Of a stretch of DNA of 32,972 bases, positions 1 through 32,972 are shown in pieces. The position numbers and the translations under genes were made by a program. Under the pieces are notes generated by a model. The model was not told the origin of the DNA, made no database searches, and saw only the letters and a program-made list of their open reading frames with translations. This DNA is from a virus: positions 1 to 32,972 of the IMG/VR virus record IMGVR_UViG_3300045988_113040, one strand, 5' to 3'. Every line of letters starts with the position of its first letter. Positions within the stretch are counted from its first letter, which is position 1.

Positions 1-55
1 CTAGTGGAAGGAACAGACCCGAATGCGACCGGTACCGGAATGGGAGGCTCTGAAG
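1..55. repeat. Assembly overlap. Bases 1..55 are identical to 32918..32972 (circular contig closure)
   Basis: Direct comparison of the first and last 55 nt. The length equals a common de Bruijn k-mer. Confidence 0.9.
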
Positions 56-2945: not shown

Positions 2946-3808
2946 CACTCACCACAGTAGACGAACAGACCATATCCTTCCCATGGATTGAACTCGTCAA
3001 AAACGCATACGCCATGCGCGCGCGCGTCACCAACTTCAGCGCGGTCGGCAAACGCAGCTTCACCCGCATACTCTCCAAAGCTGTCGGCGGCGTCAACTCC
3101 TACTTCCTCATGCAGGACGGCGACCCGCTCAGCACCGACTACCTCCCATCCGAAGACCTCCACTTGGACAAGGTAGCCGCAGTAGGTTTGGACGGACGCT
3201 GCTACGACGAAAACGCCGAGGAAATCAACGAAAACCTCCGATGCCTCACCCTCAGCCACGCGCCAGTCACCGACCAAGCCGTGCTCTTGGCGCAGCGCGC
3301 CATGGTCATCGAAGGACTCATCTCCCAAAACCTCGAACATCTCATGCTGCCAGAACCCGTCGTGGTCGGCACGTCGCCCGACGTGGTAATCAAAACGGAC
3401 CCGACCAAGAACCCATCCGATTGGACGAAATTCGACGCCAACGATGACCACGACACCATCGTGCGCCCCGAAGTCAAACGACTCAGCCAATGGGATAACG
3501 GACAGCTCAAAACACTCCTGCAAAACACGGCGCTCAGCTTCCAGATGGAAACCGGACTCCCACCGCAGGACGCGCAGATACTCGACACGCTCGGAGCGAC
3601 AACCCAGTCGCTCGTATCCAACAGGGAAAGCTTCGTCAGCCGAATCTACGTCATCAAACAGGATTTGAACGCCGTCTTCGAGCCGATGGGCATCACCCTC
3701 GACTATGAACTCACGTTCCCGCAGACCGCGCAGGACATCGCATCCATCGGCGACGCCTACGGCAAGGGCGCTGACGCCGACATCCTCAAGAAGTATCAGG
3801 TGGTGTGA
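2942..3808 (+). CDS. Packaging/structural protein of unknown family (288 aa). Only candidate for a (very short) portal
   Basis: ORF track. ATGA overlap upstream, and it lies directly upstream of terL. No portal motif could be verified by eye. Confidence 0.5.
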   Translation: MTLTTVDEQTISFPWIELVKNAYAMRARVTNFSAVGKRSFTRILSKAVGGVNSYFLMQDGDPLSTDYLPSEDLHLDKVAAVGLDGRCYDENAEEINENLRCLTLSHAPVTDQAVLLAQRAMVIEGLISQNLEHLMLPEPVVVGTSPDVVIKTDPTKNPSDWTKFDANDDHDTIVRPEVKRLSQWDNGQLKTLLQNTALSFQMETGLPPQDAQILDTLGATTQSLVSNRESFVSRIYVIKQDLNAVFEPMGITLDYELTFPQTAQDIASIGDAYGKGADADILKKYQVV

Positions 3809-3809
3809 C

Positions 3810-5258
3810 ATGCTGGTGAAGAATCCAAACTGGAGGGCGAACGTCCGGCCAACATCCGACGTGGCAATCATGGCCGCCGAGTACGTGAACTGGGGTCGAG
3901 GCAACGCAATCCTCCCGTTTCAGGTCGAATTCCTCAACAACGCCTTCCAACGCAAGAAGGACGGCACTTGGAAATACAAGCGCGTCGCGTTGAACATGCC
4001 GCGTCAGAACGGCAAGACGAAAATCCTCACAGCCCCAATCCTCTACTACCTGTTCGTGCTCGGATTGAACGTGCTCGTCACCGCGCATGAGCAGATTGCG
4101 GCGAACAAAATCATGGAGGATTTGAAGGACGCCATCGATTCGAATCCAGAACTGAAGGCCGAGGTCACGCATTTCAGCACCACCATGGGACGCGAGCGCC
4201 TACAGTTGAGGAACGGCGCGTTCGTCCGGTTCCGTTCCCGCAAGAGCGCTTCCGCTGGCATGGGCGGCACGTTCGATTTGGTCATCTTCGACGAGGCGCA
4301 GGAACTCCGCTCCGAATACGAGGCGATGATTACCAAGACGTTGAAGACGCGCCGCATGGCGATGATAATCTATACTGGCACGCCGTTCCTCCCCTCGTCC
4401 ATCGGAGACACGTTCAACGTGTTCCTCGACAATGCCGAAGAGGATGACATGTCATACGCTGTGCGCTACGGCATCGATGACGAGACGGCGGACATCGAAG
4501 ACGAGCAATTGTGGGCACTCACCAACCCGCTCTACCCGGACGTGATTCCACGCGAAGCGTTCCTCACCGACGTGGCGATAGCCAAACAGGGCGGCGCGGA
4601 CGGACTCATCGACTTCCGCATCCAAGACTTGGGCCTGTGGTGGGCTGACAGCATCCCTCCAGCAATCCCGATGGACTTGTGGGACAGTGCATACTCCGAC
4701 CTCCAACATGACCGCGATACGCTCGTCTACGCGCTCACCTTCGACCCGGCAACCAGCACCCTCGCCCTGTCCGTGGCAGCAAGCACCGAAGAGGTGACGG
4801 TCGGCTCCCAGCATTACGACAAGTGGGCGTACATCATAGGCGAAATCGTAGACGAACGCCCAACCACCGAATCATGGCAGTGGGTGGTTGACGAACTGAA
4901 GACCCGCCCCCGCAAGACCACGCTCATACTGGATGCCGGAGGATTGAACAATCCAATCAGGGACATGCTGCCGCGCGGATTGAACGTCATCCAATTGACC
5001 GGCACCGAATTCCTCGCCTCTCAGCAGGGATTCCTCGACCTGCTGAACGAAGGACGGTTCAAGCATACGAACAACCCCCAGCTGACCGCCGAGGTGCAGA
5101 ACGCGCAGAAGCTCAAATCCGGTTCGGATGACCAGTGGAAGTTCGCGCCGATACGCAAGACCGAAACCACGGCCGGCTTGAAGGGAGTGTCAATCGCCGC
5201 ATGGTATCGCGGCGTCAACCGTCCGAAGGAACGCAAGGTCAGGGAGGTGATAGCGTAA
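3810..5258 (+). CDS. terL: Terminase large subunit
   Basis: ATG 3810 with AGGTGG 6 nt upstream (the track ORF starts earlier at 3705). Walker A is MPRQNGKT and Walker B is FDLVIFDEAQE. A C-terminal nuclease-type region is present. Confidence 0.85.
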   Translation: MLVKNPNWRANVRPTSDVAIMAAEYVNWGRGNAILPFQVEFLNNAFQRKKDGTWKYKRVALNMPRQNGKTKILTAPILYYLFVLGLNVLVTAHEQIAANKIMEDLKDAIDSNPELKAEVTHFSTTMGRERLQLRNGAFVRFRSRKSASAGMGGTFDLVIFDEAQELRSEYEAMITKTLKTRRMAMIIYTGTPFLPSSIGDTFNVFLDNAEEDDMSYAVRYGIDDETADIEDEQLWALTNPLYPDVIPREAFLTDVAIAKQGGADGLIDFRIQDLGLWWADSIPPAIPMDLWDSAYSDLQHDRDTLVYALTFDPATSTLALSVAASTEEVTVGSQHYDKWAYIIGEIVDERPTTESWQWVVDELKTRPRKTTLILDAGGLNNPIRDMLPRGLNVIQLTGTEFLASQQGFLDLLNEGRFKHTNNPQLTAEVQNAQKLKSGSDDQWKFAPIRKTETTAGLKGVSIAAWYRGVNRPKERKVREVIA

Positions 5259-6994: not shown

Positions 6995-7591
6995 ATGGGT
7001 GCAAAGCAGTCTTCCGCAAACGTAACATTCTCCAAGCCGGGCACCAGTGCCAACAAGTCCGGTTATATTTGGGTCGCCCCATTGGGCACCGCCCTCCCCA
7101 CCAACGCCACTACCGAACTGGATGCGGCGTTCGTCGGCCTTGGCTATCTGTCCGAAGACGGTCTGACCGAACCGGCATCCCTCACCGCAGGAGACGATAT
7201 TGTGGCCGCTGGTGGCGATACGGTCGCACAGGCCGACCCGACGTTCTCCAAGACGTGGACGGGCACTTGCATCGAAGCCCTGAACGAAGACCTGATTAAG
7301 GTCGCCTACGGTTCAGCCAACGTGACGGTCGAACAGGCGTCCTCGGCAAAGGATGGCTCTATCACCGTCAAGGAGCAGGCTGGCGAACTGGAGCATCACG
7401 TCATCGTCATCGACGAAATGCTCAAGGGCGGCCGCAAGCGCCGTAACGTGATGACCGATGCTACCTTCCTCCTCACCGGCGACATCAGCCACGTGCATAC
7501 GGCTCTCGTGAACTTCGAGTTCACCATCAACGCCTATCCGACCGCCACCCAACCGGCACAGACCCAGTACATCACCATCCCAAAAGCGTAA
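6995..7591 (+). CDS. Major tail (tube) protein
   Basis: ATG 6995 with GAAAGGAA upstream. The sequence WVAPLGTALPT...FVGLGYLSEDGL is typical of TP901/phi13-type tail tube proteins. Confidence 0.75.
   Translation: MGAKQSSANVTFSKPGTSANKSGYIWVAPLGTALPTNATTELDAAFVGLGYLSEDGLTEPASLTAGDDIVAAGGDTVAQADPTFSKTWTGTCIEALNEDLIKVAYGSANVTVEQASSAKDGSITVKEQAGELEHHVIVIDEMLKGGRKRRNVMTDATFLLTGDISHVHTALVNFEFTINAYPTATQPAQTQYITIPKA
7579..7585 (+). promoter_or_regulatory. -1 programmed frameshift slippery heptamer C CCA AAA
   Basis: Fits X XXY YYZ in the tube protein frame (ATC CCA AAA GCG TAA). The -1 frame is open to 7944. Confidence 0.55.
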
Positions 7592-7944
7592 GCTCTCCGA
7601 ATTCGACGCTGACAGTCACCGTATCCGATAGTACGGTGGCTGAAGGCGGAGCGATGTGGGTGGTCGGAGACTGGGGACAAGCCGCACCATGGACGCGTGC
7701 TGCAGGCGTGAAGATGGTCAAGGGCGCGAATGATGTCTATACCGGCGAACTACTCCTCACAAGGGACACCAAGTTCGACATCAAGATTCTGAAGTCCACG
7801 GTCTCTACGACGAGCGGCGGCGATAATACTTGGTCTGCGGTCAGGTATGCCAGCACTCTGAACAAGTCCGCGTCGCATGATTTCGGAGAGTTCACCGACA
7901 ATCTGATTCCCAACGGTAACTTCGACGAAGGAAAGGTGAAATAG
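7585..7944 (+). CDS. -1 frame C-terminal extension of the tail tube protein with a CBM20-like beta-sandwich domain
   Basis: After the slip it reads SVSSPNSTLTVTVSDSTVAEGGAMWVVGDWGQAAPWTRAAGVKM...FDIKILK. The track lists only 7636..7944 (GTG start). Confidence 0.5.
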   Translation, partial: SVSSPNSTLTVTVSDSTVAEGGAMWVVGDWGQAAPWTRAAGVKMVKGANDVYTGELLLTRDTKFDIKILKSTVSTTSGGDNTWSAVRYASTLNKSASHDFGEFTDNLIPNGNFDEGKVK

Positions 7945-8310
7945 ACACCTGCTGACCTAATTAGCGAACGTAATAATGCTAACAGTAAGCCGAATGTCAT
8001 GCGGCTTGCCGAATCGACATCAGTAATATCCGACGTGTTCGTCATTCCGCCTAACCAGACGTTGCGACTCACTGGATATTGCATGGGCTGGAATACTGGG
8101 AAATCTGGCACGCTCTTGATACAAGTTGTCTCACCGCAACAGAAAGTGTTGTCTGAGTTCGAGTGTGAGGTAGGCTCCCCGAAAACTTGGGGTTCATTTA
8201 GTCGGACGTTTACAACAGACGGAATACCGTTGGAATGCAGTGTCAAACTGACGAACAATGATTCCCCAGCAGCCTTGCTGTTCGACTCGCTCAGTCTTGT
8301 CAGTCCGTGA
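7945..8310 (+). pseudogene. CBM4_9-like jelly-roll segment in the same frame as 7585..7944, separated only by TAG 7942..7944. Either a readthrough module or a nonsense-truncated remnant
   Basis: NLIPNGNFDEGKVK-TAG-TPADLISER...TLRLTGYCMGW...WGSFSRTFTT...LLFDSLSLV reads as one domain. There is no SD before ATG 7999. Confidence 0.4.
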
Positions 8311-8381: not shown

Positions 8382-8666
8382 ATGGCAAAACGCAAGCCCA
8401 CCATCACCGCAGAAGACTTCAACGACAATTGGGGCGACGCCTACGCGAAACTCCTCCGCAACCGCAAATTCCAACAGGCCATCCACTCCGAAAAAGTCGA
8501 AGACGGCGTGGAAACCATCTGGCTTGTAGACAAGCTCATGCGCGGCGTGCTGAAGGAAAACAAGTACGAAGCGGTCATGAACGCATTCGATGATGACGTG
8601 CTCGACGCATGGGAATACCTCTCGGGAAAATTGCCAGCGCTTTTGGATTCACAGTCGAAAAACTGA
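8382..8666 (+). CDS. Tail assembly chaperone (gpG-like)
   Basis: ATG 8382 with GAAAGGAAGG upstream. It lies between the tube protein and the TMP and contains the slippery site. Confidence 0.7.
   Translation: MAKRKPTITAEDFNDNWGDAYAKLLRNRKFQQAIHSEKVEDGVETIWLVDKLMRGVLKENKYEAVMNAFDDDVLDAWEYLSGKLPALLDSQSKN
8624..8630 (+). promoter_or_regulatory. -1 programmed frameshift slippery heptamer G GGA AAA (G/GT)
   Basis: Zero frame is TCG GGA AAA TTG. The -1 frame continues IASAFGFTVEKL, matching track ORF 8609..8968. Confidence 0.75.
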
Positions 8667-8968
8667 CTTACGCGATAAACCCAGACAAGTGGGATAGCCA
8701 AATCTTGGCAGATTTCGCAAGCCAATACGGCAGTCCCAAAAACTACACCATCATAGAGAGAGCCAAACTCATAGGCACGTTCGGAGCGACGGCACGACTC
8801 TTGGACATCATCCAACAGTCAACCCTAGCCCCCTACAGCGGCAAGGGACGGAAACCGAAAAGCGTATTGCCGGAAAACCGGAAGAACACCAAGAAGGAGG
8901 ATTACGAACTCGATTCGATGAACACCGAAGACATCAACAAGGCGTTGGGTCTTCACCGAAAGGAATAG
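8630..8968 (+). CDS. Frameshift extension of the tail assembly chaperone (gpT-like part of GT)
   Basis: The -1 frame relative to 8382..8666 is open to TAG 8966..8968, immediately before the TMP start. Confidence 0.7.
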   Translation: MASAFGFTVEKLTYAINPDKWDSQILADFASQYGSPKNYTIIERAKLIGTFGATARLLDIIQQSTLAPYSGKGRKPKSVLPENRKNTKKEDYELDSMNTEDINKALGLHRKE

Positions 8969-8969
8969 G

Positions 8970-11900
8970 ATGGCAAAGGGCAGCATCGCAACCGCATGGA
9001 TACGGGTACTCCCATCATTGGAAGGCCTACAATCCGCATTGGTGAAAGCCAGCAAGGGCGCGGTGCTCACCCCCACCGTCCAACCAAAAATGTCAGGGAC
9101 GGAAAGCCGCATGTTCAAAGACAGCGGCACCGGCCTGTCATCCATCTTCTCAGGCTCGTTCGCCAAGAACCTCAACCTGCAAGGCGGTGTGAAGGGTGCG
9201 CTCAACGGCGTGTTCGCATCCTTCACCACAGGCGGACAGCGTTCCGCCAACGCCTTCGGCAACAGTTTCAGCAACCTCGACATCGGCAAATACCTGAACA
9301 CGGCGGCAGCCGTCGCCGGAATCGTATCAGTCTCCCACGCCGTCAAGAACGTGACCTCCAACGTCATCGAACTCGGCAACCAGTGGGGTCAAACCACCGC
9401 CATGCTGAAGAACGCGGTAGGCGACGCGGGCGACTATAAGACCTCTCTCGAAGATTCGCTGAAATATGCGAACGAGGTCGGCGTATCCACGGATGATTTC
9501 GTCCAGTCGGCATCCCGACTGCGCACGCTCGCGCCAGAAGTCGTAACCAATTACGGCGATGCGGCCAAGTTCACGAAACTGCTCGACATGAACATGGTCA
9601 GCACTGGCGCGTCCACTCAGGAAGCGTCCAGTGCCATGCGCCAGATTACACAGGCATTGGGCAAAGGCATCGTGAACGGCGATGAGTTGAATTCCATCAT
9701 GGAGAACTCGCCGCAAATCGCCCGAATGCTCGCCAAGCATCTCAACGTGTCCGTAGGCGAACTGAAACAGTTGGGCAAGGAAGGCTCCATCAGCGGCCAA
9801 GCCCTCTACGATACGGTGCTTGAAAACGCGGACGCCATCGAAAAGCAGTTCGACGCCATGCCCGTAACCGCAGACCGCGCATGGAACAGCATCAAGAACA
9901 CGGTCGGCGCAAGGTCGGCGGAAGCCGCCACGGCATTGTCCGCGAACCTCGGCAAAGCGCTGACCGCAATCTCCGATTCCGGCATGGCCGCCACCATAGG
10001 CGAAATGCTCGCAGGATTCGTGCCATTGTCGAACGCGGCCGCCACGTTGGCCTCGACGTTCGTCAACCAGCTCACACCAGCCGTCAACAAGGCATTCGAC
10101 CCGCAGCAGATAGAACGGTTCCTCGCACCGTTGACGAACCTTATCAGCGCCAACTCGCAGAATGTCAACATGCTGTCCAGTCTGGGAGATGTCCTCAACA
10201 CGGTAGGAACCATCGGAACCACCGTCTTCAGCCTCATGGTCGCTACGAACGACAGGTTCGCCTCCCGAATCCCGTTCATCGGCACCGCACTGGTCGGCGT
10301 GAAGAACGTGCTTATCGGATTGGGTTCGTCCTTCACGAACGCCTTCGGCAACGCCATATCCGCATCCTCCATCGTCATCGACAAGCTTGCCAGCGTGGCG
10401 GACGCCATGTCGAAAAGCGTCGACGAATCCATTAAGGTCGAAAACGCGCTCGGAAGGTTCAACGTCGCATACATTGACCTGCAGGATGATGCTCTCGGCT
10501 TCGGAGCCGACGCGGCCAAAGGATTCGCCATGGTGCAGGGCGCGGCAGAAAACCTGCGCAACGGCGTCGGACAGGTGTCCGGTAACATTTCCCTGCTGCG
10601 TTCCGGCCTGAACCAGATGGGCGATGCGGCAGAATCGTTGCCGCCCGAATTCCTGAAAGCCTTCGAAACGTTGAGTACGCAGGTGGACGTGGCGTCCGGC
10701 CAGAAGGCTCCGAAGCTCATTCAGGCGTTCAGGGACATTCGCATGGCCGCGGACGCCATCATAGTGGACTCCACTGCGTACAAGACGCTGGACTTGGCCG
10801 CACGGGACGCCGACATCTACCGCGACAAGCTCACGCAGGTCGGACGCGAACTCAAAGACCTCACCGGCCTGAACATTCCGAACGTGTTCCTCCCCTTGGT
10901 CGGCTCTGCAGTACAGGCGTCAGACCAAGCGATGATGGCATTCGGCAACCTGAAAACGGGACTCGCGAACATGGGTCACGATTTTACGAATGCTTGGAGT
11001 TTCGTCGGCGACGATTTCAAGGCGCTCGCCAACAGCATTTCCGACTCGTTCGCAACGAGGATTGAAGTGTTGAAGGCGGATGTCGAATCCGGGTTCGCCA
11101 TCATGGTGTCGAATGTGAAAGGCAAGGCGTCCGAATTCAAGACGGCGTTCGCGGAAATGATGGACACGACTGGCATCGGCGACGTCGTATCGAAGGTTTC
11201 AGGCGCATTCGACACCATGGTGGAAGGCGTGAAGTCGAAGGCGTCCGCCCTTGGCTCCATCCTGTACGAACCGTTGCAGGGAATGTCGGAAATCATTTCC
11301 AATGAGTTCGGCGGCAAGAATCCGTTCGCCCCGCTGGCCTCCGCCGCGAAGACGGTCAGCACCGGATTGAAGAGCACGTTCGGCGGAGCCGTCTCACGTC
11401 TCACGGGACGTTTCGCACCGTTCGCCGCCTCAGGAAAGGCCGCGTTCAATGCGGTCGGCTCCGCGGCGCTGAAAGTGTCTTCCGGCGCGTTGAAAGGTTT
11501 CGGCGCAGTCATGAATGGAGTCGGCGCGGCAATCGGCAAGATTGGCGGCATCGCATCATCCTTGGGCGTGACGGGCGCATTGTTCACCGGCCTGACTACA
11601 GGCTTCCAAACCCTATTCAAGCTCGACCCGTCCCAGATGACAGGCAAGTTCGACGAATGGCAGAAAAACCTCGACAATACGCTTACCGGCATCCAAACGA
11701 AACTGCCAGCCATGGCGAGCGCGTTCGCCGCAGCCCTACCGCAGATGGTGGCGAGCATCACCGCCGCATTGCCGGGCATCGCCAACGCGTTCATGAGCGT
11801 CGGACAGACGCTCGCACCAGCGTTGATGACGATACTGCCGCAAATCACCCAAGCGTTCTCCGACATGTTCGCCCAACTGCCCGCTTTCATCGCCACCTAC

Positions 11901-12971
11901 GGCCAGCCGATGCTGGAATCGTTCGGCACGCTGTTCGCCACACTCGCCGGACAGATTCCGTCGCTCATGACCTCACTCGGTCAGTCGTTGGTGGCCGGTA
12001 TTCAGGCCGCATTCAGCGCCATCAGCGACAATAGCGCGGCGATTGCCGGATTCGTCAGCGGATTCGGCGCATCATTGGCTTCCGGCATCCAAACGTTGGG
12101 TTCCACCGTGGTGGCCGCGCTACCGTCCATCGGACAGAGCATCGCCACCGCACTGCCGACGCTGATTCCAGCCTTGATGTCCGCCATCACCAGCGTGATA
12201 ACCTCACTGGCCGCAGCACTGCCGGGCATCGCCGTAGCCATCATCAACCAGCTGCCAGCCGTCATCGGCGGCTTGGTGACCGGCATCATCAACGGTCTGC
12301 CGATGCTGTTGAACGCCTTCGTCAGCATTGTGACCAGCATCGCCGCGAACTTCCCGAGCATTTTCATGGCCGTCGTTCGCGCGATTCCGGCGATTATCTC
12401 TAACATCGCCCAACCGTTCGCCGGATTGGGTGGTCAGATTCTTGGCTTCATCAGAAGCATTCCGGACAAAATCATGGACCTGTTCGCCGATGCCGGCTCG
12501 TGGCTGCTGGACTCCGGCGCGGCGTTGATGGACGGTTTCAAACAGGGTATTCTCAACGCGGTCGAAAACGTGAAGAGCGCGGTGAAGGGCGCGTTGCAGA
12601 AGGTTCGAGACTTCTTCCCGTTCTCTCCTGCTAAGGTCGGCCCGTTCTCCGGCTCCGGCTACACGTCCGTGTCTGGCGAGCATCTTATGCGTGACTTCGG
12701 CAAGGCCATCGGCGCTCAAGGCACGTTCGTGCGCGGTCAGGTCGATGACGTGCTGAGTTCGTTGGATTTCGACCAAATCAGTCCATACGACTTTGGCGTG
12801 GTGTCGAAGCCGCGGCTTACCGACTATACTGGTAAGGTAGCGGCGGCACAGCCCACTGGCGGCGTCCACATCGACAATGTGGTCGCAAGCCCGTTGAGCG
12901 ACGTGGAACTGGTGGCCCGCCGATTCGGATACGCTTTGAACAATGAGATGATTGGAAGTGTCAGACCTTGA
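8970..12971 (+). CDS. Tape measure protein
   Basis: 1333 aa, Ala/Gly/Ser-rich. Contains the tape-measure motif NGDELNSIMENSPQIARMLAKHLNVSVGELKQLGKEGSISG. Confidence 0.9.
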   Translation: MAKGSIATAWIRVLPSLEGLQSALVKASKGAVLTPTVQPKMSGTESRMFKDSGTGLSSIFSGSFAKNLNLQGGVKGALNGVFASFTTGGQRSANAFGNSFSNLDIGKYLNTAAAVAGIVSVSHAVKNVTSNVIELGNQWGQTTAMLKNAVGDAGDYKTSLEDSLKYANEVGVSTDDFVQSASRLRTLAPEVVTNYGDAAKFTKLLDMNMVSTGASTQEASSAMRQITQALGKGIVNGDELNSIMENSPQIARMLAKHLNVSVGELKQLGKEGSISGQALYDTVLENADAIEKQFDAMPVTADRAWNSIKNTVGARSAEAATALSANLGKALTAISDSGMAATIGEMLAGFVPLSNAAATLASTFVNQLTPAVNKAFDPQQIERFLAPLTNLISANSQNVNMLSSLGDVLNTVGTIGTTVFSLMVATNDRFASRIPFIGTALVGVKNVLIGLGSSFTNAFGNAISASSIVIDKLASVADAMSKSVDESIKVENALGRFNVAYIDLQDDALGFGADAAKGFAMVQGAAENLRNGVGQVSGNISLLRSGLNQMGDAAESLPPEFLKAFETLSTQVDVASGQKAPKLIQAFRDIRMAADAIIVDSTAYKTLDLAARDADIYRDKLTQVGRELKDLTGLNIPNVFLPLVGSAVQASDQAMMAFGNLKTGLANMGHDFTNAWSFVGDDFKALANSISDSFATRIEVLKADVESGFAIMVSNVKGKASEFKTAFAEMMDTTGIGDVVSKVSGAFDTMVEGVKSKASALGSILYEPLQGMSEIISNEFGGKNPFAPLASAAKTVSTGLKSTFGGAVSRLTGRFAPFAASGKAAFNAVGSAALKVSSGALKGFGAVMNGVGAAIGKIGGIASSLGVTGALFTGLTTGFQTLFKLDPSQMTGKFDEWQKNLDNTLTGIQTKLPAMASAFAAALPQMVASITAALPGIANAFMSVGQTLAPALMTILPQITQAFSDMFAQLPAFIATYGQPMLESFGTLFATLAGQIPSLMTSLGQSLVAGIQAAFSAISDNSAAIAGFVSGFGASLASGIQTLGSTVVAALPSIGQSIATALPTLIPALMSAITSVITSLAAALPGIAVAIINQLPAVIGGLVTGIINGLPMLLNAFVSIVTSIAANFPSIFMAVVRAIPAIISNIAQPFAGLGGQILGFIRSIPDKIMDLFADAGSWLLDSGAALMDGFKQGILNAVENVKSAVKGALQKVRDFFPFSPAKVGPFSGSGYTSVSGEHLMRDFGKAIGAQGTFVRGQVDDVLSSLDFDQISPYDFGVVSKPRLTDYTGKVAAAQPTGGVHIDNVVASPLSDVELVARRFGYALNNEMIGSVRP

Positions 12972-14985: not shown

Positions 14986-15739
14986 CGAGATTGTCGTGCA
15001 TCAGGGAGAGTCGGCTGACGGCATCGCTCCAGTGGCCGAAGACGACGAAATGGTCATCGACGTGAAGAATCCAGCTCAGGCCACCAACAAGCTCGTAGCC
15101 ACGTTGAACGAGTATGGTCGCCGGTTGCGTGAACTGGAAAGGCCGTCAGGCTCCCAGCTTACTCAGGCTATTCAGAAGGTGTTGGACATCAGTGAGAACA
15201 TCGACCAGACGGTGACCGCATCAATCAACAGGAACTCGTATGACCGTGCGACCATCGACCAAAAGTGCAATGCGTGGAATTGGGGCGTCCTATCGCAGGG
15301 ACGCGGCGGCACGAATACGACGAACGCCTATGCCAACCTGTTTTCCGTAGGCTCGTGGCGTGCCGTGTGGGCATTGTCCGATGGCACGTTGGGAACGGCC
15401 CAGTCATCCCGCAAGGTGAAGCAGGATTTCATGATGCCGGACATCACGTTGGAACAGATGCGTGCCGTCGATTGGACTCTCTACCGTTACATCGACGACG
15501 TGAACCAGCGCGGCGATAGTGCGAACGTGCATTTGGGCATGATTGCCGAAGATTTGGACGATAACGGCTTGGGCTTGTTCGTCGAGTATAATGATGATTA
15601 CGAGCCGTGCGGCATCAACTATCCGATGCTCGGCGTGTGGGCGATACATGAGGCCCATCTCGCCCATGACCGTATCGACGAATTGGAATCGCGCCTGAAG
15701 GCGCTGGAAGGAAAGATTGATAATGGCATTGAGGAATAG
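14978..15739 (+). CDS. Tail fibre protein with a C-terminal intramolecular chaperone (peptidase S74-like) domain
   Basis: SSRKVKQDF...HLGMIAEDL...INYPMLGVWAIHEAHLAHDRIDELESRLKALE follows the S74 autoproteolytic chaperone pattern. Confidence 0.65.
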   Translation: MVDEIVVHQGESADGIAPVAEDDEMVIDVKNPAQATNKLVATLNEYGRRLRELERPSGSQLTQAIQKVLDISENIDQTVTASINRNSYDRATIDQKCNAWNWGVLSQGRGGTNTTNAYANLFSVGSWRAVWALSDGTLGTAQSSRKVKQDFMMPDITLEQMRAVDWTLYRYIDDVNQRGDSANVHLGMIAEDLDDNGLGLFVEYNDDYEPCGINYPMLGVWAIHEAHLAHDRIDELESRLKALEGKIDNGIEE

Positions 15740-16673
15740 TATCTTCGCAGTGTCCGGGAAAGCGTCGTTTATGGATGCGCGACGCGACATGAGCGGCCTG
15801 TTCGTCTGCGATAAGACCACGATGCTGCCGATTGCCGGCATTCTCGACCGTTCGCAGGACAATCTCGTCACCGGTAACAGTAATTCCATGAGCGTGACGG
15901 TGCATCCGTTCAACGCGATATTGAACCGTTATGGCGCGCTGCTTATCCAGAATGATGGAAACGTGAACGTGCAGCTGGCTGCGGCTCCGTCCGCTAACTC
16001 GCGTATCGACGTCGTGTATGTGAAGCAGAACGAGACGCGCTCGCCAATGTCGGATAGTTCGGACGTTCCGGCGTTCGGTGTGGTTAAGGGTACGGCTGCC
16101 GCCGTGCCGGTCGCACCGGCTGTTCCGGCTGGCGCTTTGGCTTTGGCACAGGTGCTGCTTCCGGCTGGCGTGTCGAACACGGCTGCGTCCGGCGTGGTCA
16201 TCACGCAGACGTATATTGGTGCGGCCATGAAGGGCGACATGCTGCGGGTACAGACTTCCGACCAGCGTGACGCTCTGACTGGTGTGCCTGAAGGCACGCT
16301 GCTGCATAATGTGGCCGATAATTGCGATTATGTCAGAAAAGGTGGTAAGTGGCGTGGGTGGAACATGCCGTGGAGGGATATTCACCTCGACAAGAATACC
16401 GCGAACGTGTGGGCTTCCAATGGTACTGCGCACATCTACGTTCAGACTACTGACATCGACCTTACCGGCTGGGGGTCGTATGTGACCGTCGCGCATGTGA
16501 GCAACAGCGCCTTCTGTCCAGACATCCAACAAGGCATTAATGCGTGTACTGGAAATAGCTATTTCCCGACGTTTTTGGGCATCTACCCCGATGGAGATGT
16601 GAAAATCGGATACGCTGGCGGTCAGGTTGGAAAACGTTCCGTATTGTCCGTGCTCACTTACAATATCGGCTAG
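15723..16673 (+). CDS. Receptor-binding/minor tail protein, with a constant part to 16338 and the current variable C-terminus at 16339..16673
   Basis: ATG 15723 with GGAAGGAAAG 7 nt upstream. It is the last tail gene and contains the left inverted repeat in frame (ADNCDYVR). Confidence 0.55.
   Translation: MALRNSIFAVSGKASFMDARRDMSGLFVCDKTTMLPIAGILDRSQDNLVTGNSNSMSVTVHPFNAILNRYGALLIQNDGNVNVQLAAAPSANSRIDVVYVKQNETRSPMSDSSDVPAFGVVKGTAAAVPVAPAVPAGALALAQVLLPAGVSNTAASGVVITQTYIGAAMKGDMLRVQTSDQRDALTGVPEGTLLHNVADNCDYVRKGGKWRGWNMPWRDIHLDKNTANVWASNGTAHIYVQTTDIDLTGWGSYVTVAHVSNSAFCPDIQQGINACTGNSYFPTFLGIYPDGDVKIGYAGGQVGKRSVLSVLTYNIG
16314..16338 (+). repeat. Left arm of a perfect 25-bp inverted repeat, GCCGATAATTGCGATTATGTCAGAA
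   Basis: Exact reverse complement occurs at 17020..17044. Internal dyad is ATAAT-TGCG-ATTAT. Confidence 0.9.
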
Positions 16674-17019
16674 GCTCTCCACTCCCTGCACTGCCATCCT
16701 CCGGTCACGCCGGAGTATATGCTGTTAGTGTTGCCCAGCATGATGATTTCACCATTGGGGCGTACGAAATTGCACCAGTTGGCGTTGACTGCAGCCACTA
16801 CACCAAAGTTGATGGCGGTGGGACTATCCCCGTAGGGTCGCCATCCGGCCGGAACGGTTTCATTCGCAAGAGCGTGATTCTGTTGGTTTGAACTATCGTA
16901 TTTTACACTGCCGCCCACGATGACCGTATCCCATTCGCGTGAGAGCCACCACGTATCCTTGGTGAATGGCGCCTTCACGCTAATGATGTCCCTCGTCTTG
17001 GCCCACTTGCCGCTTGGAG
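16339..17019. mobile_element. Putative invertible segment (G-segment-like) carrying two convergent alternative RBP C-termini
   Basis: Bounded by the 25-bp inverted repeats. Both cassettes are in the same codon phase relative to the repeat, and their stops overlap in CTAG at 16670..16673. Confidence 0.5.
16670..17019 (-). CDS. Startless alternative RBP C-terminal cassette (about 116 codons) on the opposite strand
   Basis: Minus frame reads ADNCDYVR-TPSGKWAKTRDIISVKAPFTKDTWW... The track starts it at GTG 16978. No start codon or SD lies at or before the repeat. Confidence 0.5.
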
Positions 17020-17044
17020 TTCTGACATAATCGCAATTATCGGC
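17020..17044 (-). repeat. Right arm of the 25-bp inverted repeat
   Basis: The plus strand TTCTGACATAATCGCAATTATCGGC is the reverse complement of 16314..16338. Confidence 0.9.
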
Positions 17045-17050
17045 TATAAT
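17022..17050 (+). promoter_or_regulatory. Candidate promoter for the lysis cassette giving a leaderless or near-leaderless mRNA
   Basis: CTGACA, 17 nt spacer, TATAAT. ATG 17059 lies 8 nt after the -10 with no SD. Confidence 0.4.
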
Positions 17051-17058
17051 AGTGCCAT

Positions 17059-28647: not shown

Positions 28648-28834
28648 AACCGCGTTAACTAATGAACATGGTCAACACGTTAACCAAGTGAACAGATGAA
28701 CCGCGTCAACACATGAACACGGTTAACATATTAACCACGTCAATGAATGAACCGCGTTAATGAATAAACCGCGTCAACAAGTAAACACGGTTAACACATC
28801 AACGCAGTAAACAGATAAACACAGTTAACAAAAC
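28648..28834. repeat. Eleven tandem 17-bp iterons (12-bp core AACCGCGTYAAC-like plus a 5-nt variable spacer)
   Basis: Units start at 28648, 28665, 28682, 28699, 28716, 28733, 28750, 28767, 28784, 28801 and 28818, an exact 17-bp period. Confidence 0.9.
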
Positions 28835-29214
28835 ACAACAGCAGGGGGAGCACACCCCAACACCCCGGGGGGGGCACCCGAAAACAACACGCGCGGGGCC
28901 TCACCGCACGCCTCGCCAATTGCGCCGACGAGGGCGATGGGACTGGGCACCATCTGAGAGCCATTCTTTGGGGTCTTATACGGTCTTTCACGCCGAACCC
29001 TAGTACTTTTACCTTTCCACGCTGAAAGGCCCTCAGATGCGCCTTTATTCGATTCGGACGCATTCAGCAGCTGCGGCCATGCGACACGTCTCCTTGGATG
29101 GATTATCACTGCTCACTGTAATTCTCTTGGGACAATCCCTTGTTGTCTTCGACCAATTGGACGCCCCCCCACCAACCCACCGCATCACAGGCACCGCGAA
29201 GTTGTGTGCGAAAA

Positions 29215-32888: not shown

Positions 32889-32972
32889 ATTTTCGTACAC
32901 GATACAACCACATCCGACTAGTGGAAGGAACAGACCCGAATGCGACCGGTACCGGAATGGGAGGCTCTGAAG
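32885..32972 (+). CDS. 5' part of the scaffolding-like gene that continues at base 1
   Basis: ATG 32885 with GGAAAGG 5 nt upstream. 32918..32972 duplicates 1..55 in frame. Confidence 0.5.
   Translation, partial: MNFRTRYNHIRLVEGTDPNATGTGMGGSE
32918..32972. repeat. Assembly overlap copy of bases 1..55
   Basis: Exact identity over 55 nt. Confidence 0.9.

Follow-up and report, generated by a model that had tools for sequence, protein, structure and literature searches.

The window analysed here is the whole of IMG/VR virus record IMGVR_UViG_3300045988_113040, 32,972 nucleotides (nt) of phage DNA, and our subject is the 3′ end of its tail-tube gene, where a second reading frame displaced by −1 runs out of a slippery heptamer and encodes an extension that resembles a CBM20 starch-binding domain, a type of carbohydrate-binding module (CBM). 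An earlier sequence-only reading of this DNA had proposed that a −1 slip at the heptamer leaves some of the tube subunits fused to the CBM20-like module, and every computational test that we ran supports this proposal. The principal features of the locus are the following:

6995..7591, + strand: major tail (tube) protein gene, 198 amino acids (aa), zero frame, from ATG 6995 to TAA 7591
7579..7585, + strand: slippery heptamer C CCA AAA, read from the sequence in X XXY YYZ phase, two codons ahead of the tube stop
7585..7944, + strand: −1 frame extension, 119 codons and a TAG, by translation; the predicted trans-frame product is tube residues 1-197 followed by SVSSPNSTL...GKVK, 316 aa in all
7600..7893, + strand: CBM20-like β-sandwich domain (extension residues ~6-103), assigned by AlphaFold2 (AF2), Foldseek, profile and phmmer

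The tube gene, its heptamer and the −1 frame

The tube assignment is solid, given the matches to Pfam Phage_TTP_17 (PF25681, E=5e-8) and PHROG 117 ('major tail protein', E=8e-33) and the ~40% identity that the protein shares with Streptococcus and Lactococcus phage proteins annotated as major tail proteins. Gene order agrees with membership of a siphovirus tube module: capsid, tube (6995..7591), extension (7579..8310), two tail chaperones (8382..8666 and 8609..8968) and tape measure protein (TMP; 8970..12971), with the extension starting at the 3′ end of the tube gene. We compared the locus with 3 isolate loci and 71 IMG/VR loci encoding the same tube protein, 72 of them usable for the heptamer and 70 informative for the state of the extension. 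The nearest isolated relatives are lytic-type phages of Bifidobacterium pseudocatenulatum or B. adolescentis, derived from sewage, whose DNA is ~80% identical over the tube and extension region.

The last codons of the tube gene are ATC CCA AAA GCG TAA, and the phase and position that the sequence-only reading had given for the heptamer agree with the sequence. The conservation check that it had named came out in its favour, with CCCAAAA at the same phased position in 70 of the 72 usable relatives; one of the other two has GCA AAA AAA (A AAA AAA) and one has lost the site via a duplication. Among distinct tube genes CCA is invariant in 60/60 and AAA in 62/62, yet AAA accounts for only 12% of the Lys codons in these genes. 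The codon before CCA is ATC, CTC or GTC (Ile, Leu or Val) across relatives, and its final C is kept. Conservation of the heptamer exceeds what the protein sequence requires. Reading the sequence 5′ of the heptamer revealed no upstream Shine–Dalgarno (SD)-like element, and there is no CCC_stop 'shifty stop' at the end of the tube gene, the extension frame being −1 relative to the tube frame. None of the best 120 tube homologues, all of 192-219 aa, is an in-frame tube–CBM fusion.

The −1 frame is free of stops from 7447 to TAG 7942..7944, with the translation quoted in the earlier reading, and runs ...PK SVSSPNSTLTVTVSDSTVAEGGAMWVVGDWGQ... across the junction. Its earliest in-frame ATG, GTG or TTG is GTG 7636, followed by ATG 7654, both as previously reported, and no start codon lies between 7447 and 7636. 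The 69 nt (23 codons) from the slip site to the annotated ATG 7654 show the substitution pattern of a coding −1 frame: across 42 distinct relatives L9, T10, V11, T12, V13, D15, T17, V18 and G22 show little or no amino-acid change, variation at their third positions is 5-45%, and variability upstream of the ATG, summed for codon positions 1, 2 and 3, comes to 1.7, 2.3 and 4.7, with the third-position bias seen in codons 3-23. The segment SVSSPNSTLTVTVSDSTVAEGGA is encoded upstream of ATG 7654 in this frame, and SVSSPNSTLTVTVSDSTVAEGGAMW... is a peptide stretch obtainable solely through frameshifting; the predicted junction-spanning Glu-C or chymotryptic peptide is ...TQYITIPKSVSSPN. In one relative the ATG is replaced by ATA, the extension open reading frame (ORF) of that relative also holding an in-frame stop, and in three others a Big_2-type module starts directly from the slip site and uses this −1 frame.

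The encoded domain and the case for frameshifting

Structural modelling of the 119-aa extension gave a predicted local distance difference test (pLDDT) score of 77, with strands at residues 6-14, 23-29, 51-59, 62-71, 88-92 and 96-102. The TLTVTVS strand encoded before the ATG (residues 6-14) is the confident first strand of this CBM20 model, with pLDDT ~92 for residues 11-20. The sequence-only reading had argued that separate initiation would truncate the fold, the strand TLTVTVSD lying upstream of both starts, and the model bears this out: the strand is integral to the sandwich, and the protein of a relative begun at the ATG reaches a pLDDT of only 41-58 over the CBM20-like domain.

The CBM20 pattern noted earlier holds for fold and profile and falls short of the Pfam gathering score. 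Foldseek returned 27 PDB matches at E<=1e-3, almost all of them CBM20 starch-binding domains, with TM-scores of 0.60-0.76 when normalised to isolated CBM20 chains; the same threshold yielded no comparable viral structure in BFVD. A family profile searched against the PDB found 7czj_A, the isolated CBM20 of a maltotetraohydrolase, at E=1.9e-5, and more weakly the starch-binding domain of glucoamylase. In the 7czj_A alignment the ATG falls at residue 18 of the 97-residue CBM20; only the ..PW.. Trp matches the Trp of LGNW, and the second Trp position of site 1 shows no clear conservation. A phmmer search over 1.84 billion representatives matched only 23 proteins at E<=0.001, most of which belong to this extension ORF or are pieces of it, together with one genuine double-CBM20 protein (E=1e-4). 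Against Pfam CBM_20 (PF00686) the window scored 16.6 bits and relatives 20.5 and 17.3 bits, all below the gathering cutoff of 23.3. Searching the literature for CBM20 in phages and for the isolate names gave nothing relevant.

On these models and alignments we regard the extension as CBM20-like by fold and profile, below the Pfam threshold. It shares the β-sandwich fold of the CBM20 domains of glucoamylase, CGTase domain E, β-amylase, STBD1 and GDE5, with profile and phmmer links to them, but unlike them it is only ~13-18% identical, scores below the gathering threshold, and sits on a virion protein rather than on an enzyme. Judged from the fold, its ligand might be an α-glucan such as starch, or else a host cell-wall or exopolysaccharide glycan.

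Downstream of the heptamer, within the extension, the RNA is predicted to fold:

7607..7648, + strand: RNA stem-loop, with a 12-bp stem (7613..7624/7631..7642) and 4 outer bp (7607..7610/7645..7648)
7596..7599/7657..7660, + strand: possible closing helix, 10 nt after the heptamer, compatible with the data, without covariation

The 7-bp hairpin of the sequence-only reading (7617..7623/7632..7638) exists, but it is only the core of this larger structure. The 80-nt stretch 7586..7665 that holds the stem-loop has a minimum free energy of −34.3 kcal/mol (z=−3.2) and is stable in most relatives, with z down to −6. When the explicit structure was tested across 43 relatives, 87.9% of cells were paired and 4 pairs changed on both sides, versus at most 58% pairing in slid controls; the outer helix was 98.8% paired, with variation on one side only. 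Third positions within the stem vary less than those outside it, and Rfam contains no known RNA family near the slip site.

The same locus can also be read as two genes, the downstream ORF having its own start at ATG 7654 (or GTG 7636), perhaps with ribosomes re-initiating once past the tube stop, and giving a free 96-102-aa protein for which the heptamer is incidental. Several observations favour this arrangement or weigh against frameshifting. An SD-like GAAGGCGGAG precedes ATG 7654 with a pairing energy (dG) of −7.9 kcal/mol (background mean −2.9, with 13% of positions at −6 or below); its median among relatives is −7.5, near that of genuine gene starts (−8 to −13), and gene callers and the GenBank records of relatives place the ORF start at the ATG, as a separate gene. 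The heptamer alone is unremarkable, with 6 copies of CCCAAAA in the window versus 3.9 expected, and hence not rarer than chance. It is kept beside dead extensions, including those that are neutrally evolving remnants (pN/pS, the ratio of nonsynonymous to synonymous polymorphism, ~1), and synonymous diversity is low over the entire 3′ end of the tube gene, so that its conservation is weaker evidence than the counts suggest. Nor are the relatives independent samples, because most come from one IMG metagenome. As for the RNA, classic stimulators stand 5-9 nt downstream of the heptamer; the conserved hairpin begins 21-27 nt after it, beyond that spacing, the stem is absent or weak in one subgroup (L002/L050), and RNAalifold missed the hairpin, giving a weak alternative without covariation.

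A separate gene nevertheless leaves the 23 codons 5′ of the ATG, with their clear coding signature, without any start codon in the window to serve them. It would begin inside the CBM20 fold, past the first strand, and the ATG-initiated protein models poorly over that domain. The SD-like bases vary among relatives (GAAGG, GACGG, GAAGA, TCAGG), following changes in the Glu/Asp and Gly codons; the stretch is partly paired in the outer stem (7645..7648); and one relative has ATA where the ATG should be. We consider independent initiation improbable.

The conserved heptamer, the coding signature before the ATG, the lack of an upstream start, the ATA relative, the place of the pre-ATG strand in the fold, the Big_2 exchange, the purifying selection on intact copies and a second heptamer in the tail chaperone genes (both described below) jointly favour a −1 programmed frameshift as the best explanation of the locus. 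What makes the heptamer significant is where it lies and how it is phased, together with the coding −1 frame that follows and the comparisons among relatives. From this combination we infer that programmed −1 frameshifting at C CCA AAA probably puts a CBM20-like module on a fraction of the tube subunits; in broader terms, this gut Bifidobacterium phage very probably relies on −1 slippage where its tube gene ends to give some of them a CBM20-like domain.

Under such a mechanism most ribosomes translating the tube gene would stop at TAA 7589 and release the 198-aa tube protein. A minority would slip back by one base on C CCA AAA, with the P-site tRNA-Pro re-pairing from CCA to CCC and the A-site tRNA-Lys from AAA to AAA, and would go on in the −1 frame with AGC GTA AGC... 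The predicted product is a 316-aa fusion of tube residues 1-197, a linker SVSSPN and the CBM20-like β-sandwich; co-assembly of such subunits into the tail tube would display a carbohydrate-binding module along the tail. A stimulatory role, weakly supported by the structural data, may fall to the stable stem-loop at 21-27 nt or to its possible base at 10 nt after the heptamer.

Truncation and recurrent loss of the extension

Comparison with relatives revises one part of the sequence-only reading, the 119-aa extension not being the native unit, and adds two further features:

7942..7944, + strand: TAG stop replacing a conserved Trp codon (TGG), a nonsense mutation between two domains; relatives read ..GxVKWTP..
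7945..8310, + strand: orphaned remainder of a second domain, a CBM_4_9-type β-jelly-roll; 121 open codons behind the TAG, in the same frame, to TGA 8310

Since the TAG stands where relatives keep TGG (..VKWTP..) and continue through the second domain, the extension in the window is a nonsense allele (TGG>TAG at 7942). Comparison thus shows, at the level of sequence, that the window carries a truncated allele of a two-domain extension of ~241 aa (CBM20-like plus CBM_4_9), and that the ancestral and still common form bears the second, CBM_4_9-type module. The earlier reader had missed the continuation of the frame after the TAG, and likewise that only 26/70 relatives have an intact extension and that characterised tube extensions arise by +1 shifts.

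In one relative (L001) the intact second domain passes Pfam CBM_4_9 (PF02018) with 27.4 bits versus a cutoff of 25.9, and in another (P0001) it is modelled with pLDDT 77-93 and matches the jelly-roll modules of CBM16, CBM4 and CBM61 in Foldseek; the window's own fragment behind the TAG had no match in a Pfam search. ATG 7999, where the orphaned domain-2 ORF starts, has no SD-like sequence (dG −0.9 kcal/mol).

We entertained two other accounts of the TAG. A sequencing or assembly error was rejected, since 12 contigs carry an ORF for the same 96-aa product and the 6 that were checked, from six assembly or run accessions, have an identical 747-nt allele. Error is also disfavoured by the distribution of damage, the capsid, tube and N-terminal TMP portions of relatives being free of lesions and the extension having many. 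Readthrough or reassignment of TAG found no support, as the genome has no tRNA genes and TAG is the normal tube terminator in many relatives.

Disruption of the extension is common. The 70 informative relatives fall into four states:

26 loci: intact two-domain extension
32 loci: two-domain extension, disrupted
9 loci: short remnant
3 loci: broken Big_2 module

At least 20 different lesions occur in the extension among relatives, comprising TGG>TAG/TGA changes at four Trp codons, CAG/CAA>TAG/TAA, TAC>TAG, indels of 1-2 nt and deletions of 10-19 nt. The Trp codon lost in the window is TAG in two backgrounds and TGA in two others. Loss is specific to the extension, because none of these loci has a broken capsid gene (66/66 intact) or tube gene (69/69). 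Purifying selection acts on the copies that remain intact: the ratio of nonsynonymous to synonymous substitution (dN/dS) is 0.26 in domain 1 and 0.38 in domain 2, versus 0.15 in the tube. A diversity-generating retroelement or other targeted hypermutation was rejected: no template-like repeat involves 7585..8310, and apart from indels the lesions consist of ordinary transitions affecting TGG and CAR codons.

The loci with a Big_2 module and the remnants have features of their own. In L040, L047 and L060 (~3590..3900 each) a Big_2 immunoglobulin (Ig)-like module replaces the CBMs in the −1 slot; all three have a TGA after '..KAKAVY', L040 has an additional in-frame stop, the rest of Big_2 lies in another frame in L040 and L060, and a different, unrelated ORF then follows. 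The remnants, of 49-83 codons, are found in L023, L039, L051, L054, L061 and L063 (3590..3850) and in L062, L064 and L069. Their hydrophobic core residues are replaced, domain 2 is deleted, and they evolve neutrally (pN/pS ~1). They keep the slippery site, which is expanded to CCCAAAAAAA in L051 and L054 and reads GCAAAAAAA instead in L063.

This pattern raises the question of whether the whole extension, in this genome, is a decaying and irrelevant pseudogene, such that the shift may still occur and the truncated product is unstable or never incorporated, and nothing is displayed. The nonsense mutation at a conserved Trp codon suggests as much, as do the low proportion of intact extensions, the many lesion types (indels of 1-19 nt among them) beside intact capsid and tube genes, and the neutral evolution of one remnant class; moreover, domain 2 of the window compared with the closest intact relative gives dN/dS ~0.66, above the median of 0.38. 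However, the stop comes after a complete and undamaged CBM20-like domain that models confidently, and domain 1 of the window is still constrained relative to its relatives (dN 0.07-0.09 versus dS 0.27-0.42). The mutation at 7942 appears recent because the 121 codons downstream hold no further lesion, and SPP1 shows that a tube decoration of one domain can be viable (PMC6316719). We therefore regard a wholly inert extension as improbable, and favour a truncated allele whose remaining CBM20-like domain would still reach the tube by frameshifting.

For the population as a whole, the simplest reading of our analysis is that the extension would be a dispensable decoration that is often lost, as is known for SPP1 gp17.1* (PMC6316719). 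A more specific idea, rather unlikely in our estimation, is that tube decoration is an on/off locus at the population level, tandem CBM display via −1 frameshifting being repeatedly knocked out in gut populations. If so, it would imply fluctuating selection on virion stickiness. In one form of this idea CBM20 would tether virions to dietary resistant-starch granules, or to other α-glucans, that feed the starch-degrading species B. adolescentis and B. pseudocatenulatum; food particles would then play the part that mucus has in phage adherence, and loss would be favoured when free diffusion matters. With the extension broken in most genomes and its essential neighbours intact, these populations in any case provide natural material for weighing what tail decoration costs and what it gains.

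Known tube extensions and the wider genome

Tube subunits extended by frameshifting are known from several phages. SPP1 gp17.1* arises by a +1 shift at CCC_UAA that adds a fibronectin type III (FN3) domain of 87 aa, is made at a ratio of ~3:1, and is non-essential (PMC6316719). In the lactococcal 936 group, MTP-TpeX results from a +1 shift at CCC.UAG that places a CBM on a fraction of tube subunits; TpeX was demonstrated by western blot and immunogold labelling, and its modules were identified by HHpred (PMC4759559, PMC6669499). The Listeria Tsh protein (A118/A500 tail gene) uses +1 at CCC_UGA, not −1 (PMC5009743). The direction of the shift has been viewed as incidental to how such modules land (PMC5009743). 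A −1 shift, on G GGA AAG, produces gpGT from gpG in lambda and is conserved in long-tailed phages (PMC5009743).

The sequence-only reading had cited SPP1 gp17.1* as precedent, which is apt for a frameshifted tube extension and differs in direction. As in SPP1, we predict two tube proteins with a common N-terminus and a shift right after the tube core, at the end of the gene, and the added part would be a non-essential, adhesion-type domain exposed on the tail; unlike SPP1, with its +1 shift and FN3 domain, the present locus combines −1 with a CBM cargo. TpeX is the closer parallel in cargo, in that frameshifting at the 3′ end of a major tail gene adds a CBM to some subunits and the extension is variable and found in only some related phages. 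The two cases nevertheless differ in the site (a −1 X XXY YYZ heptamer here, +1 at CCC.UAG there), in the kind of CBM (CBM20-like and CBM_4_9-type here, a different kind there), in placement (directly after the tube core here, after an in-frame Ig-like adhesin domain there) and in the evidence, TpeX having been demonstrated experimentally and the present extension being drawn from sequence and models.

Lambda gpG/gpGT and the present locus have in common a tail-module gene with an X XXA AAZ heptamer for −1 slippage, and −1 heptamers also serve Ig-like extensions of capsid proteins. Unlike gpGT, an assembly chaperone absent from virions, the shifted product proposed here would be a structural subunit with a binding module. 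The window holds a second X XXA AAA heptamer, G GGA AAA at 8624..8630, a canonical −1 site in the 58-nt overlap of the chaperone pair (8382..8968); from its canonical position this is the expected gpG/gpGT-type frameshift site. GenBank relatives annotate the pair as two separate genes.

The locus thus joins a kind of recoding already known from phages; its cargo is unusual, and its variation in the population is of interest. The documented tube extensions that we found (SPP1, 936 TpeX, Listeria Tsh) use +1 at CCC_stop, and this would be a −1 heptamer example. The isolates BP742P1, BP677P1-P8, BA720P3 and BA746P1 annotate the ORF as a separate hypothetical protein, which a frameshift interpretation would correct, pointing to a likely glycan-binding module on the virion surface of phages of a key gut genus.

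All 32,972 bp of the window form one complete phage genome. Its two ends (1..55 and 32918..32972) are an exact direct repeat of 55 bp, which indicates a complete, circularly closed assembly, and a gut-metagenome scaffold in ENA, LOOM17-1_SAMN06328441_METAG-scaffold_156, is identical to the window. We found no prophage copy of the tube gene in 185,579 GTDB species-representative genomes, which fits a virulent, or at least rarely integrated, lifestyle.

Two repeat structures lie elsewhere in the genome. A 32-nt inverted repeat (16307..16338 and 17020..17051; 91% complementary) flanks 681 nt that take in a 102-aa ORF on the opposite strand (16670..16978) and the 3′ end of the 318-aa ORF 15717..16673. 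This segment is found just 3′ of a tail-fibre gene that encodes a Peptidase_S74 chaperone domain. By its sequence the segment looks like an invertible receptor-binding cassette, for which we identified no recombinase. Finally, ~12 tandem 17-nt repeats resembling AACCGCGTTAACnnnTG occupy 28648..28847; they are iteron-like and may mark a replication origin.

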